Below are positions 18,743 to 31,262 of a DNA stretch of 64,000 nt, one piece after another (the stretch's first letter is position 1; the number at the start of each line of letters is the position of its first letter). Under the pieces are notes generated by a model. The model was not told the DNA's origin, ran no database searches, and worked only from the letters and a program-made list of their open reading frames with translations. The position numbers and the translations under genes were made by a program. Source of the DNA: Octopus sinensis (lineage: Eukaryota); NCBI RefSeq assembly GCF_006345805.1, contig NC_043005.1:75640001-75704000 (forward strand). The letters are read 5' to 3'.

Positions 18743-18806
18743 GTCTGTGTGTGTATATACATACATACATATGTATGTATACATACATATATATATTTAT
18801 ACATAT

Positions 18807-18842
<36 letters not shown>

Positions 18843-19055
18843 ACAATGATAAATATCAAAGTAAGTTATATACAGTAGCGGTAACACATCGTGACGTATT
18901 TTTGCCATTTCAATATGGCTAACCCCTAAGGGTGGATGCTACTGTAGTTTTTAGCCCCAGGAGGACACACTCCTCCAGCTGGCCATAGACACACTATCTG
19001 TGTCCTGTCAGTATTTGCAAAGGGAAGTCATCCTTCCCGTCTTCAACTTATGATA

Positions 19056-19100
19056 CACACGGACTCGAGTTTCGAGGTATTGACCTCTCGTCAGCGTGTG
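19056..19100 (-). ncRNA. Minimal type-I hammerhead ribozyme motif, intact core
   Basis: Minus strand: cacacg CTGACGA gaggt-caat-acctc GAAA ctcgag TC cgtgtg. Stem I 6 bp, stem II 5 bp, palindromic stem III ACTCGAGT, GUC cleavage triplet. Confidence 0.85.
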
Positions 19101-19361
19101 ACAATCATAGTTGTCGCCGAGAATTAGATTTCCTTCAAAAAGTATAAGTATTTGTGTAAAACTACAGTAGCATCCACCCTTAGGGGTTAGCCATATTGAA
19201 ATGGCAAAAATACGTCACGATGTGTTACCGCTACTGTATATAACTTACTTTGATATTTATCATTGTTTGATTTCACTTTTTCAATACCAGCGACAGTGGA
19301 CGCTGGAAAAAGTATAAGTATTTGTGAAGGAAATCTAATTCTCGGCGACAACTATGATTGT

Positions 19362-19406
19362 CACACGCTGACGAGAGGTCAATACCTCGAACCTCGAGTC
19401 CGTGTG
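19362..19406 (+). ncRNA. Hammerhead motif, second copy, with a GAAA to GAAC core change at 19392
   Basis: cacacg CTGACGA gaggtcaatacctc GAAC ctcgag TC cgtgtg; identical to the minus-strand copy except at one core base. Confidence 0.75.
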
Positions 19407-19594
19407 TATCATAAGTTGAAGACGGGAAGGATGACTTCCCTTTGCAAATACTGACAGGACACAGATAGTGTGTCTATGGCCAGCTGGAGGAGTGTGTCCT
19501 CCTGGGGCTAAAAACTACAGTAGCATCCACCCTTAGGGGTTAGCCATATTGAAATGGCAAAAATACGTCACTATATATATATATATATATATAT

Positions 19595-19915
19595 GTGTCG
19601 GTGGCACATAAAAAACACCATCCGAGCGTGGCCGTCTGCCAGCCTCGTCTGGCACCTGTGTCGGTGGCACATAAAAAACACCATCCGAGCGTGGCCGTTT
19701 GCCAGCCTCGTCTGGCACCTGTGTCGGTGGCACATAAAATCACCCACTACACTCTCGGAGTGGTTGGCGTTAGGAAGGGCATCCAGCTGTAGAAACACTG
19801 CCAGATCTGACTGGACTGGTGCAGCTTTCGGGCTCCCCAGACCCCAGTTGAACCGTCCAACCCATGCTAGCATGGAAAGCAGACGTTAAATGATGATGAT
19901 GATGATGATGATGAT
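19595..19915 (+). mobile_element. RTE 3' UTR copy with (GAT)n tail (representative; others at ~8110, 9780, 20681, 31915, 33125, 37900, 39155, 42565, 43880, 44710, 59185, 59550, 59960)
   Basis: Shared cacccactacactctcggagtggttggcgttaggaagggcatccagctgtagaaac...ccaacccatgc.agcatggaa...(gat)n. Confidence 0.85.
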
Positions 19916-20641: not shown

Positions 20642-21359
20642 ATGTATATATAATATATATATATTTGCATATGAATGAAGTGCATGTGAATGAAGTGCTT
20701 ATCTCTAATTGTGGAAGGAACATGTGAAAGGGGCAGACCCATGAAAAAGTGGTGAGAAAGGATCTACGGGGATTGGGACTCTTAGAGGGGATGACAGGGG
20801 GCCAAAACTCCTGGTGGTTTGCTGTGCTTGAGTAATCACACTGAGTAAAAGCCTAATTGTCTTTGCATACAGCTTGTCCCCTGCATCCATCTGCAGCTTA
20901 GCATTCCTAATCTTACAGGCTTGTGGGTGCTGGTGCCATGTAAAAGGAACCCATACTGGTGCCATGCAAATGCACCTGTGCCAGTGCTGTGTTAAGGCAC
21001 CCAGTGCACTCTGTGAAGCGGTTGGCATTAGGAAGGGCATCCGGATGTAGAAACCATGCCAAAACAGACAGGAAGCCTGGGCAGATCTCTACCTGGCCAG
21101 CTCCTGTCAAACCATCCAACTCATGCCAGCATAGAAAACAGACATTAAATGATGATGATGATGATGTGTATATATATATATATACACACATATAAATATA
21201 CATACATAATTTTTCTTATTAATTTTAATTGGCAGAAAGTCAAACACAAAGGCCAAGACTTTCATGTACAGCAAATTAATAATAGTTTATCCATCTATCT
21301 ATGTCTCTCCTTCTCTTCCTCTTTCTTGCTCTCTCTCTCTCCTTATATATATATATATA

Positions 21360-22941: not shown

Positions 22942-22950
22942 ATATATATA

Positions 22951-23029
22951 TTTGAGCGTGGTCGTTGCCAGAACTACCTGACTGGTCCACTCGCCGGTGG
23001 CATGTAAAAGCATCCACTACGGGCATGGG

Positions 23030-23078
<49 letters not shown>

Positions 23079-23160
23079 GCACCCATGCCCGTAGTGGATG
23101 CTTTTACATGCCACCGGCGTGTGGACCAGTCAGGTAGTTCTGGCAACGACCACGCTCAAA
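22951..23160. repeat. 80 bp inverted duplication around a (TA)n loop
   Basis: 22951-23030 is the reverse complement of 23081-23160 with 1 mismatch seen. Confidence 0.9.
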
Positions 23161-23885
23161 AGGTGCTTTTTATGTGCTACCTGCATGGGAGCCAGTCCGG
23201 TGGCACTGGTAACGACCACGCTCGAATGTTGTTTTTTACGTGCCAGTAAGGCGACGCTGGCAACGATCATGCTTGGATGGTGCTTTTCACATGTCACCAG
23301 CACAGGAGCCAGTCTGTGGCCCTGGCAATGATCATGCTCAGATGTGCTTTTAACGTTCCACTGGCATGAGTGCCAATCAGGTATTACTGTCATCAGCCAC
23401 GTCAGCGATTTTGATTTGTTTACACTTGCCTCAATAGGTCTTCACAAGCAAGGTTCACTGTCCAATGAATGAGGGGTACTCATAAGTGGGCCGGTTACAC
23501 TCCATGTTCGGATGTGCTTTTAATGTTCCCCTGGCATGAGTGCCAATCAGGCGGTATTGTCATCAGCCACGTCAGCAATTTTGATTTGTCTTAATAGGTC
23601 TTCGCAAGCAAAGTTTATTGTCAAATGAATGAGGGGTATTCATAAGTGGGCTGGTTACACCCCTGGCATAGGCCACGAGGTTATGGTCTCACTTGACTTG
23701 TCGGGTCTTCTCAAGCACAGCATATCTCCAAAGGTCTCAGTCACTAGTCATTGCCTTGGTAAGGTCCAACATTCAAAGGTCAAGCTTCACCATCTCATCC
23801 CAGGTTTTCCTGGTCTACCTCTTCCACAGGTTCCCTCAATTGCTAGAGTGTGACCCTTTTTCACACAGCTGTCTTCATTCATTTG
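23081..23885 (-). mobile_element. RTE-clade LINE 3' fragment
   Basis: Minus strand reads EDSCVKKGHTLAIEGTCGRGRP...LWRYAVLEKTRQVK*, then the sub-repeated 3' UTR with an internal ~170 bp duplication. Confidence 0.8.
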
Positions 23886-25255: not shown

Positions 25256-27050
25256 TGACACTTGTGAAGACCTTTTGAGGCAAGTGAAAATCAAAAAATC
25301 AAAAAATCAAAAAATCAAAACAAATCAAAATAGATGAACATCAATGGAATTTGTATCTTTGTGATACCAGTGCCGGTGGCACACAAGAAAACCATCCGAA
25401 CGTGGCCGTAGCCAGTACCGCATCGACTGGCCTCCGTGCTGTGGGCACATAACAAACACCATCCGATCGTGGCCGTTCGCCAGCCTCATCTGGCACCTGT
25501 GTCGGTGGCACATAAAAACACCATCCGAAGACCCGGCAAGACTAGTCAGGCCATAACCCGTGGCCCCTACCTGGGACGTAGTCAGTCCACCTGTGCATAC
25601 CTTCCTTCCTTCTTGTGACACTTGTGAAGACCTGTTGAGGCAAGTGAAAATCAAAAAAACAAATCAAAATAGATGAACATCAATGGAATTTGTATCTTTG
25701 TGGTACCAGTGCCGGTGGCACGTGGCACACAAGAAAACCATCCAAACGTGGCGGTAGCCAGTACCGCATCGACTGGCCTCCGTGCTGTGGGCAAGTAACA
25801 AACACCATCCGATCGTGGCCGTTTCCCAGCCTCATCTGGCACCTCTGTCGGTGGCACATAAAAACACCATCCGAAGACCCGGCAAGACTAGTCAGGCCAT
25901 AACCCGTGGCCCCTACCTGGGACGTAGTCAGTCCACCTGTGCATACCTTCCTTCTTGTGACACTTGTGAAGACCTTTTGCGGCAAGTGAAAATCAAAACA
26001 AATCAAAATAGATGAACATCAATGGAATTTGTATCTTTGTGATACCAGTACGGTGGCACACAAGAAAACCATCCGAACGTGGCCATAGCCAGTACCGCAT
26101 CGACTGGCCTCCGTGCTGTGGGCACGTAACAAACACCATCCGATCGTGGCCGTTCGCCAGCCTCATCTGGCACCATCCGAAGACCCGGCAAGACTAGTCA
26201 GGCCATAACCCGTGGCCCCTACCTAGGACGTAGTCAGTCCACCTGTGCATACCTTCCTTCTTGTGACACTTGTGAAGACCTGTTGAGGCAAGTGAAAATC
26301 AAATCAAATCAGATGAACATCAATGGAATTTGTATCTTTGTGGTACCAGTGCCGGTGGCACACAAGAAAACTATCCAAACGTGGCGGTAGCCAGTACCGC
26401 ATCGACTGGCCTCCGTGCTGTGGGCACATAATAAACACCATCCGATCGTGGCCGTTCGCCAGCCTCATCTGGCACCTCTGTCGGTGGCACATAAAAACAC
26501 CATCCGAAGACCCGGCAAGACTAGTCAGACCATAACCCGTGGCCCCTACCTGGGACGTAGTCAGTCCACCTGTGCATACCTTCCTTCCTTCTTGTGACAC
26601 TTGTGAAGACCTGTTGAGGCAAGTGAAAATCAAAAAACAAATCAAAATAGATGAACATCAATGGAATTTGTATCTTTGTGGTACCAGTGCCGGTGGCACA
26701 CAAGAAAACCATCCGAACGTGGCCATAGCCAGTACCGCATCGACTGGCCTCCGTGCTGCGGGCACGTAACAAACACCATCCGATCGTGGCCGTTCGCCAG
26801 CCTCATCTGGCACCTGTGTCGGTGGCACATAAAAAACACCATCCGAGCGTGGCCGTTCGCCAGCCTTGTCTGGCACCTGTGTCGGTGGCACATAAAATCA
26901 CCCACTACACTCTCGGAGTGGTTGGCGTTAGGAAGGGCATCCAGCTGTAGAAACACTGCCAGATCTGACTGGCCTGGTGCAGCCTTTGGGCTCCCCAGAC
27001 CCCAGTTGAACCGTCCAACGGACGCTAAATGATGATGATGATGATGATGA
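25256..27050 (+). repeat. Tandem array of RTE-LINE 3' region (units of 360, 342, 306 and 331 bp plus a terminal unit ending in (GAT)n)
   Basis: tgacacttgtgaagacc starts at 25256, 25616, 25958, 26264 and 26595. Internal ~50 bp sub-repeats. The last unit continues into ggttggcgttaggaagggcatccagctg and the (GAT)n tail. Confidence 0.92.
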
Positions 27051-27727: not shown

Positions 27728-29572
27728 CTAGTGGGCGCATATCTATTAAAATGCATAAGCAAGGATATACCAGAAATACAGGGGGGTCTATATAGGGATG
27801 ATGCTCTGTTTGTTATCCCTAGTAATAATAAATCTGTTATAGAAAGGATTAGAAAGAAAATTAATAATTCTTTAAGGATTTCAACCTCGGTATAACGTAT
27901 GAACCGGGCACTAAAATAGTTAACTTCCTAGATATTACGCTAGACCTTAACTCCAAGCTACATTACCCATTTAGAAAGGAAGGCGAAATCACGAATTACG
28001 TAAATAAATTATCAAATCATCCCCCAAATATAATAGAATCTTTAGTAAGAAATATTTCATTAAGAATTTCAAAATTATCATCCAATAAGGATATATTTAA
28101 CTCCCATTCTGAGCATTATAATGAGGCGTTAACTAAGGCTGGATATAACTAAAAGATTACATTCGTTGATAAGGGGAACTCACGTATTCCTAATAATGAA
28201 GTTATCAGTAGTCACATAAGCAGCAATACAGACCAAGCCCGAAATAAAAGTAGAATTAAATTAATGGTAAACGCTAATCTAGCGTACAGGCCCAACAATT
28301 CAAATAGAAGCATTGACCAGAACATAGGTAACTCGGATAATATTGAAGTAGATAAACCTAAGATGCATACAAATAAAAATAAAAATAATGGTAATAAATA
28401 CAATAACTCCGGTGAGATGAATAGTAGTAATTCTACGAACCCTAAATTTAATAAAAAAGATATATTATGGCTGAATATCCCTTTCAACTGTGCGATACAA
28501 TCGGATATACAGAACAAATTCAAAGTAATTCTGGAAAAAAAAGTTCCCTATCTCTCATAGATATCATAGAATTATATCTAGGAAAACAGTTAGGATTTCT
28601 TATTCAACCCTCCCAAATATGTCCACTTTAATAGCTAAGATTAATAATAAAAACATTAAACTAGCCAGGAAAGATAGAATAAAAATAATAATATCAGCAT
28701 GAATACCAATAGCAATTATAATAATACTACCAACAATAAAAACAACAATAGTAACTATCAAAACATAGGTGAAATTAGTAACCACAGAATGACTAATAAC
28801 ATTAACATTAATAGTAATAATAACAATGCCGATATTAATAGAAGTAATAATGTTAATAATAGAAAAATAGATATATAAGGCTAATGGAGAAAATAAGGAG
28901 AATGAAAATATCAGTGATATTATAAACAGCAATATGCAGTCGGATAAAAAGACTAACAATAATAGTAACATTACCAATAATATAAGAAATCATGGTAGGA
29001 CTTTAAACCTAAATGATGAAGCTGAAGGATCAATAAATAATAGCAATACTTTAGATATCAGCACCAACTATGGAAATGATAATCAAAATAATAGGAACCT
29101 AAGACATCTACCCAAGAATAATCCAAAGCCTGAAGTTGCTCCTCCTGTGTGTAAGTGTAGAATAAAATCAAAATGCCCGGCACCTGGTCTATGTGGGGAA
29201 AATAATGTAATCTATAAATGTACCATATCCAAGTAGAATAACAAATATCTTTACGTTGGATGTACAATTAATTTTTTAGCTAGAGTTAGAAATCACATCT
29301 CGTCTTTTAAATTACGTCATAAAGCTGGTACCACCACACTTTCAAACAAAATCTGGGAACTCAAAAATAATAATAAAAATTATAAACTTAATTGGGAAAT
29401 AGTTAGGAGAGCAATTCCGTATAAAAATAGTAGGGTTGGTTGCCAACTATGCTCCATGGAGACGTATGAAATTCTAAAGCATAGAAAACATAGTAACTTA
29501 TTGAATAATCATATCGAACTAGGTCAAGTTTGTGTCCACGCTAAATTGAAGACTTTAAAATATTTTAAATGA
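27728..29572 (+). pseudogene. Disrupted Penelope-like ORF: RT C-terminal half, thumb, Cys knuckle and GIY-YIG endonuclease
   Basis: Blocks in order: LVGAYLL...GGLYRDDAL (catalytic YRDD); VNFLDITLDL...YPFRK...YVNKLSNHPP...RISKLSS...YNEALTKAGY; ILWLNIPF...RKTVRISYSTLPNM; CKCRIKSKCPAPGLC (CxCx5Cx5C); VIY...YVGCT...RVRNH...TTLSNKIWELK...WEIV...CQLC...LLN...CVH; TGA at 29570-29572. Frameshifts near 27870, 28540 and 28680; in-frame stops at 28150 and 29234. Confidence 0.88.
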
Positions 29573-30774: not shown

Positions 30775-31262
30775 TCCTCCGCTTGCCCCTCCACCTCCTG
30801 TCCCCTCTATCTCTTATCCTTCCACCTCCAGCCCCCTCCACCTCCTGCCCCCTCCAATTCTTGCCCTTCCACCTCCTGCTCCTCCACCTCATACTCCTCC
30901 ACCTCCTGCCCCCTCCACCTCCTGCCTCTCTACCTCCTGCCCCTCCACCTCCTGCCCCTCTGCCTCCAGCCCCTCCACCTCCTGCTCCTTCACCTCCTAC
31001 CCCTCCATCTCCTGCACCCTCCAATTCTTCCCCTTCCACCCTGCCCCTCCACCTACACATCCACCCTGCCCTCCACGACACATCCACCCTGCCCCTCCAC
31101 CTACACATCACCCCTGCCCCTCCACCTACACATCCACCCCTGCCCCTCCACCTCCTGCCCCTCTACCTCCTGCCCCCTCCACCTCCTGTCCCTCCACCTC
31201 CTGCCCCTCCACCTCCTGCCCCTCCACTTCCTGCCTCTCCACCTACTGCTCCTCTACCCCCT
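30775..31262 (+). repeat. C-rich minisatellite, ~15 bp unit CCACCTCCTGCCCCT
   Basis: Direct tandem repeats; explains the Pro/Leu-rich ORFs in all frames. Confidence 0.9.

Follow-up and report, generated by a model that had tools for sequence, protein, structure and literature searches.

Short noncoding repeats with hammerhead ribozymes, the non-LTR retrozymes, have been described in several metazoans, including corals, Mytilus (units of 350-390 bp) and the axolotl (330/350 bp) (PMC7229834), and a preprint from 2026 surveys them in vertebrates (bioRxiv 10.64898/2026.07.22.740005). Both sources link retrozymes to Penelope-like elements (PLEs). In the available text of the preprint, animal non-LTR retrozymes are derived from PLE terminal repeats, and self-cleavage is reported for 1 of 9 tested elements. 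In what is available of the two sources, mobilization of animal retrozymes by PLEs is proposed from their co-occurrence and from similarity to PLE pseudo-LTRs (pLTRs) and is not shown mechanistically. PLEs have themselves been noted to carry minimal hammerheads (PMC7761336, available text). Published PLE insertions, as presented in the accessible portions of PMC8557442 and PMC3846280, combine a partial tandem with an adjacent inverted and 5'-truncated copy, a tail of 30-40 bp at one end, and (TA)n targets. According to the available text of PMC11167929, the purified Poseidon PAc protein introduces nicks into the two strands of AT-rich DNA and extends them, starting at two internal stem-loop sites that bound the tail, and uncut RNA serves as its template.

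A comparable footprint, made from a noncoding unit of 353 nt, is found in Octopus sinensis, in the 64,000-nt stretch of DNA that was analyzed (hereafter, the window). The young insert occupies positions 18842-19571 inside a TA microsatellite and consists of two head-to-head arms, the 3' ends of which both face the (TA)n flanks. The parts of the insert are as follows.

18754..18841, no strand: left target flank, a TA-rich microsatellite (with 1 nt of ambiguity in where it meets the insert at 18842)
18842..19137, reverse strand: left (inverted) arm, 296 nt, unit positions 165-353 followed by 1-107
18842..18890, reverse strand: extension ("tail") of 48-49 nt, present at the left end only, equal to 19219-19267
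19056..19100, reverse strand: intact type I hammerhead, by RF00163 match and constrained fold, with predicted cleavage after C19062
19137..19156, forward strand: 20-nt patch, equal to 19307-19326, unit positions 147-166
19157..19157, forward strand: single base that fits neither side in register, either untemplated or from a shortened A run
19158..19571, forward strand: right (forward) arm, 414 nt, or 1.17 units
19161..19513, forward strand: full 353-nt unit, 42.8% GC
19163..19238, forward strand: four-way junction predicted from the fold, with 19218|19219 in the loop of its third hairpin
19362..19406, forward strand: forward-arm hammerhead, predicted to be impaired by a private substitution in its core (A15.1 to C at 19392)
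19572..19593, no strand: right target flank, (TA)n, as read from the sequence

Self-comparison confirmed the period of 353 given in the initial annotation, which had also listed an inverted copy of ~295 bp, tandem copies, and a templated patch of 20 bp. The inverted copy measures 296 nt (from 19137 to 18842), 295 of which are identical to the periodic unit, with the two arms differing at 19392; it runs across both the boundary of the period and the site of predicted cleavage. The patch, too, is an exact repeat of 19307-19326 (blastn E-value of 1.2e-4 against the 64-kb window). The wording "tandem copies," however, goes too far: the direct repeat covers just 61 nt (19158-19218 = 19511-19571), and the forward arm, which consists of unit positions 351-353, 1-353, and 1-58 and shows no mismatch in its 61 repeated bases, holds a single hammerhead. 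The patch corresponds to the flipped sequence directly upstream of the 5' end of the left arm, with a 4-of-5 microhomology at 19137-19141. A random jump would be expected to fall within 2 nt of the point where the left arm begins approximately 5 times in 353. Assessment of a target-site duplication found (TA)n on both sides of the insert, and the 64-kb window contains no further copies of the 353-nt unit.

Several other repeats lie in the same window. The right TA flank is abutted by a very high-copy element (19594-19915) that carries 63-nt repeats and an (ATG)n tail, is presumably an RTE-type LINE or SINE, and reaches a summed depth of 1.2e7 in X1, one of the sequencing runs introduced below; related pieces are found at 20972-21166. 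The same family forms an array at 25270-27050, with roughly four units of 338-346 nt arranged head-to-tail (92-93% matches), which likewise ends in 63-nt repeats and (ATG)n and has no match to any ribozyme family in the whole-window Rfam E-value search. A 15-nt C-rich tandem array (30786-31262) is located beside the 100-N gap of the window, and a 1.35-kb (AT)n tract spans 52467-53816.

The unit is noncoding: on its circularized 353-nt sequence, the longest stop-free stretch is 66 codons, and the reading frame for a reverse transcriptase (RT) plus GIY-YIG domain, by which an autonomous EN+ PLE is recognized, is absent. It is predicted to be highly self-paired, with a folding z-score of -6.72 and 0 of 100 shuffles equally stable. 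The five hairpins named from the sequence at the outset are all present, although two of them (gacaa/ttgtc and gggaag/cttccc) are replaced by longer-range pairing in the minimum-energy fold. Position 19218 falls in a 4-nt loop of a hairpin within the predicted four-way junction. This junction is not a recognizable tRNA, because the window contains no tRNA genes. Among 39 of the 40 variants listed for the family, with position 19392 left out, 10 single-site changes break a pair of the fold where 13.95 would be expected (P = 0.07); at the other two cutoffs, the pair-breaking changes are 7 of 21 (P = 0.28) and 2 of 12 (P = 0.09). A sigma-70 scan was set aside as not meaningful for an animal locus.

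A textbook hammerhead, as claimed in the initial annotation, exists in the inverted arm only. There, the motif matches Rfam family RF00163 with 32.2 bits and an E-value of 5.3e-6 (in a search of 821 nt; the gathering score is 34) and has a 6-bp stem I that extends past an internal loop, a 4-bp stem II with a 6-nt loop, and a 2-bp stem III with a palindromic loop. The hammerhead-competent fold of this arm lies 6.8 kcal/mol above the minimum in a model that leaves tertiary contacts aside. The forward-arm hammerhead has no Rfam match and carries a C at core position 15.1 (19392), which we assume to impair cleavage. A strict hammerhead pattern has one match in the window and none in 200 mononucleotide shuffles of it. 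At the gathering level, Rfam yields no matches in the window; the whole-window E-value search yields 109 sub-threshold matches, nearly all of them of microRNA models on microsatellites, and its listing does not include the hammerhead. Sub-threshold matches to MIR810/MIR7723 on both strands around a TA run at 22949-23162 (119 bits) probably reflect an inverted-repeat element or a microsatellite effect. With one hammerhead per strand, the forward one changed in its core, the locus is predicted to be unable to cut out a monomer or to release unit-length RNA, and it would be a product of mobilization rather than an origin of monomer RNA. The locus lacks the arrangement that defines an "active" retrozyme, namely complete hammerheads in two consecutive units; this bars it as a source but does not bar the whole family.

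The family to which this copy belongs is abundant in public data. At least half of the words of the unit are present in 20 of the 24 listed public runs, from 11 studies. None of the 24 is recorded as RNA. Contigs of seven such runs were surveyed (individual runs are designated by X numbers); strand, ends, and circularity cannot be read from contigs, and the tentative RNA labels of X4, X12, and X20 are not taken as a sign of expression. In run X1, 2,768 contigs match the unit, and the summed depth over 19257-19388 is 246,000-460,000; for comparison, two long contigs have 43-54. Although summed depth should not be read as a copy number, these values suggest that the family numbers thousands of copies. 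A 383-nt contig of X4 (record 25) covers the whole unit and wraps round it, being 353 + 30 nt long, and differs from it at three sites, 19246, 19287, and 19392. Two contigs of X18, 307 and 106 nt long, share 30 nt with each other at either end, which gives 307 + 106 - 60 = 353. By virtue of these two contig cycles, the dominant form of the family closes head-to-tail at exactly 353 nt, without a coding exit, in two runs; such a cycle arises equally from tandem DNA or from a circle, and rare branches are dropped by contigs. Together with the 66-codon limit, this closure supports the original description of the unit as retrozyme-like, noncoding, and head-to-tail.

At position 19392, A accounts for 494,311 of the summed depth of 494,922 in X1, and therefore the core of the family hammerhead is intact. 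Position 19246, in turn, is T in both arms of the insert and mainly C in all seven runs (347,816 of 348,924 in X1); the shared T would fit a single template lineage, unless the species of the window differs from that of the runs. One contig of X12 (164 nt, 21 differences) is changed on both sides of the pairs 19375/19388 in stem II and 19291/19302 in an upstream hairpin, the linkage of changes within X12 contigs being judged by identical depth values. Another X12 contig appears to keep 19376/19387 while breaking the first stem II pair and U4. Such a divergent contig, with an apparently broken core and first stem II pair, counts against the explanation preferred below. Neither metagenome contigs nor viral contigs contained a match in pattern scans with 26 nt of the unit (0 in each).

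The contigs also show where copies end. Behind 19218, at least 46 contigs of X1 run on into unlike, AT-rich letters (agreement 0.45). Loose ends at this site are also found in X4 (1 contig of 3) and X20 (2 of 14), and none is among those listed for X12 (87 contigs). This family exit site, unit position 58, coincides with the right end of the copy described here (19571 - 353), and 3' ends of the family are fixed at one site or more, 19218 among them. Summed depth, a rough measure, is highest over ~160 nt upstream of 19218, as is the case for 5'-truncated copies. The end of the left arm, at 19267, which is 48-49 nt further on, is not among the loose ends listed. Random circular permutation of the copy ends is ruled out by the fixed end at 19218. 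Fixed ends had been named at the start as refuting a retrozyme; one has indeed been found, but it remains compatible with a PLE reverse transcriptase that initiates internally. A longer relative is represented by contigs of 585 nt (X12, record 16) and 584 nt (X20, record 20), which match the unit only at 19415-19510 (~88% over 95 nt), then run on unlike it, and have a depth above that of the unit's own middle part. A loose end behind 19208 is common to X12 and X20. This relative, which shares the 3' module of the unit, may be a sister family or an autonomous partner.

Because this footprint matches that of published PLE insertions, we favor, with a probability of roughly two-thirds, a reading in which a non-LTR retrozyme was copied into the TA microsatellite by a PLE reverse transcriptase-endonuclease acting in trans and priming from both ends of the cut DNA. 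Penelope-type mobilization, already proposed in the initial annotation, gains support from the inverted arm, the partial tandem, the tail, the AT-rich target, and the fixed internal start. Under such a mechanism, a tandem source locus would be transcribed into multimers, some of which would be cut by the hammerheads and then circularized by a host ligase. Bound to the four-way junction, the PLE protein would introduce a nick into either strand of an AT-rich target, and each DNA 3' end would prime cDNA synthesis internally, one at unit position 58 and the other at ~107. The tail would be seen on one arm only because of these unequal starts on the two sides. Over 414 nt, the right-hand cDNA would pass the uncut hammerhead and cross from one unit into the next; it would then jump to position 166, the point at which synthesis of the left-hand cDNA had ended, and copy 20 nt, after which the two cDNA ends would be joined over the 4-of-5 microhomology. 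As to the template, the chances of a circle and of an uncut multimer are about even. Points against this reading are the tail of 48-49 nt, compared with the published 30-40, the gap of 6.8 kcal/mol between the hammerhead-competent fold and the minimum, and the absence of 19267 from the loose ends listed and of 19218 from those listed for X12.

More speculative, and on balance unlikely, is an extended version in which a single hammerhead RNA circle is the template for a dimer of the PLE enzyme, which copies it from either end of the cut microsatellite at two fixed internal starts. The 20-nt patch would then mark the place where one RT took over the template at the point where the other had stopped, and the four-way junction would act in cis as a portable signal through which a viroid-like RNA could commandeer PLE proteins.

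The centre of the insert can be explained equally well by fold-back priming. A cDNA primed once, running from 58 to 147, could fold back (147-151 on 161-165) and copy itself, and a later deletion of 184 nt (positions 167-350) from the right arm could relax the unstable palindrome. The patch is exactly the spacer that such a fold-back, with its 4-of-5 match, would leave, and long palindromes are prone to deletion at the centre. Nevertheless, this course of events appears rather improbable: it needs a second event, and the stop of the left arm at 107 on (TA)n needs a separate reason. Palindromes at inverted PLE junctions are read as self-priming in the available text of PMC3846280, whereas that of PMC11167929 has a PLE protein extending both target strands in vitro, as in the two-ended priming favored here. 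We also strongly doubt that the unit belongs, as its pLTR, to a longer or autonomous PLE and that the locus is a 5'-truncated terminal-repeat remnant, with no free-standing retrozyme involved. Ordinary PLE insertions do have this architecture (PMC8557442 and PMC3846280, available text), and the 585- and 584-nt contigs, which leave the unit after their ~88% match to 19415-19510 and exceed its middle part in depth, point the same way. The forward arm, however, runs through the whole unit once and then re-enters it, with no coding sequence in between, and in X4 and X18 the dominant path forms a closed cycle, even if contigs drop rare branches. Moreover, the hammerhead is canonical and has a stem III, while those of PLE pLTRs are mostly minimal in what is available of PMC7761336.

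Finally, the inversion might be unrelated to retrotransposition, arising either from a satellite-like repeat through DNA recombination or from an assembly or amplification chimera at the microsatellite. Fold-back chimeras are a familiar type of artifact, and no single piece spanning this locus was seen in the runs examined, in which repeats were skipped. Such an origin is scarcely credible, given that the right end is the family-wide exit site in three independent runs, that the arms differ at 19392, and that both ends meet (TA)n, as the ends of PLE insertions do.

The two-ended priming by a PLE protein that we prefer calls for a partner element, and none was found for the unit. The window holds two PLE remnants, neither of which has a significant DNA match to the unit or is supported as its parent. 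One of them (27900-29560, forward strand) is a decayed PLE with stops that has a cysteine motif before a GIY-YIG piece (PF01541, E-value of 0.0027, under the cutoff) and a first match in Atlas of 0.95; we take it to be of the Neptune type. Its long Asn-rich stretches resemble those of the rotifer Penelope (PMC3846280, available text). The other (50900-51700, reverse strand) is a frameshifted fragment in which similar endonuclease-like motifs were recognized by eye; it has no GIY-YIG match in Pfam.

The class of animal retrozymes has already been published, and the 353-nt octopus unit is a new member. Literature searches on hammerhead ribozyme, octopus, and retrozyme found no cephalopod retrozyme in the text available, and no paper tying this insertion footprint to retrozymes; the supplements of PMC7229834 and of the preprint may list a related element. 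The value of the copy is that of a clean test case, not of a new kind of system: it provides an insertion footprint together with a 353-nt RNA, a start site at 58, and a candidate second one at ~107, all usable in the existing in vitro PLE assay.

The octopus unit has features in common with several known systems. With metazoan non-LTR retrozymes, as described in the available text of PMC7229834 and of the preprint, it shares its short noncoding unit, which at 353 nt and 42.8% GC lies within the ~150-450 bp and <50% GC of that class, a canonical type I hammerhead (in the left arm and in the dominant form of the family), strong self-pairing, head-to-tail organization (both arms cross the unit boundary, and contigs form cycles in X4 and X18), high copy number, and the presence of PLEs in the same genome. 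In contrast to those retrozymes, this locus consists of 1.17 units plus an inverted arm and is not "active" in the sense of the preprint, and its head-to-head arms, fixed starts, and (TA)n targeting have no retrozyme counterpart in the accessible portions of either source. These are features of EN+ PLEs, such as Poseidon PAc, Naiad/Neptune, and the Adineta Penelope. In the text available on them, these PLEs likewise show an inverted 5'-truncated copy adjoining a partial tandem, a tail at one end, an AT-rich or (TA)n target, a fixed internal 3' start in a stem-loop (predicted in the octopus unit), and copies that read through an uncut hammerhead. Unlike them, the unit has no RT or GIY-YIG frame, its tail is 48-49 rather than 30-40 nt, and its hammerhead is canonical, not minimal. 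Also similar are nonautonomous PLE derivatives of the Chlamys clade, such as MRC1 (PMC8557442, available text), which are likewise noncoding, are mobilized by a PLE, as is proposed for the octopus unit, and are inserted head-to-tail in many copies. Those derivatives are green-algal, however, and belong to a clade described as lacking canonical hammerheads; similarity to the 3' end of an autonomous family is shown for the MRC1 type and not for the 353-nt unit. Judged by its sequence features, the octopus unit can be assigned to the retrozyme class, and it is not an autonomous PLE; in its manner of insertion, it appears to work like a nonautonomous one.
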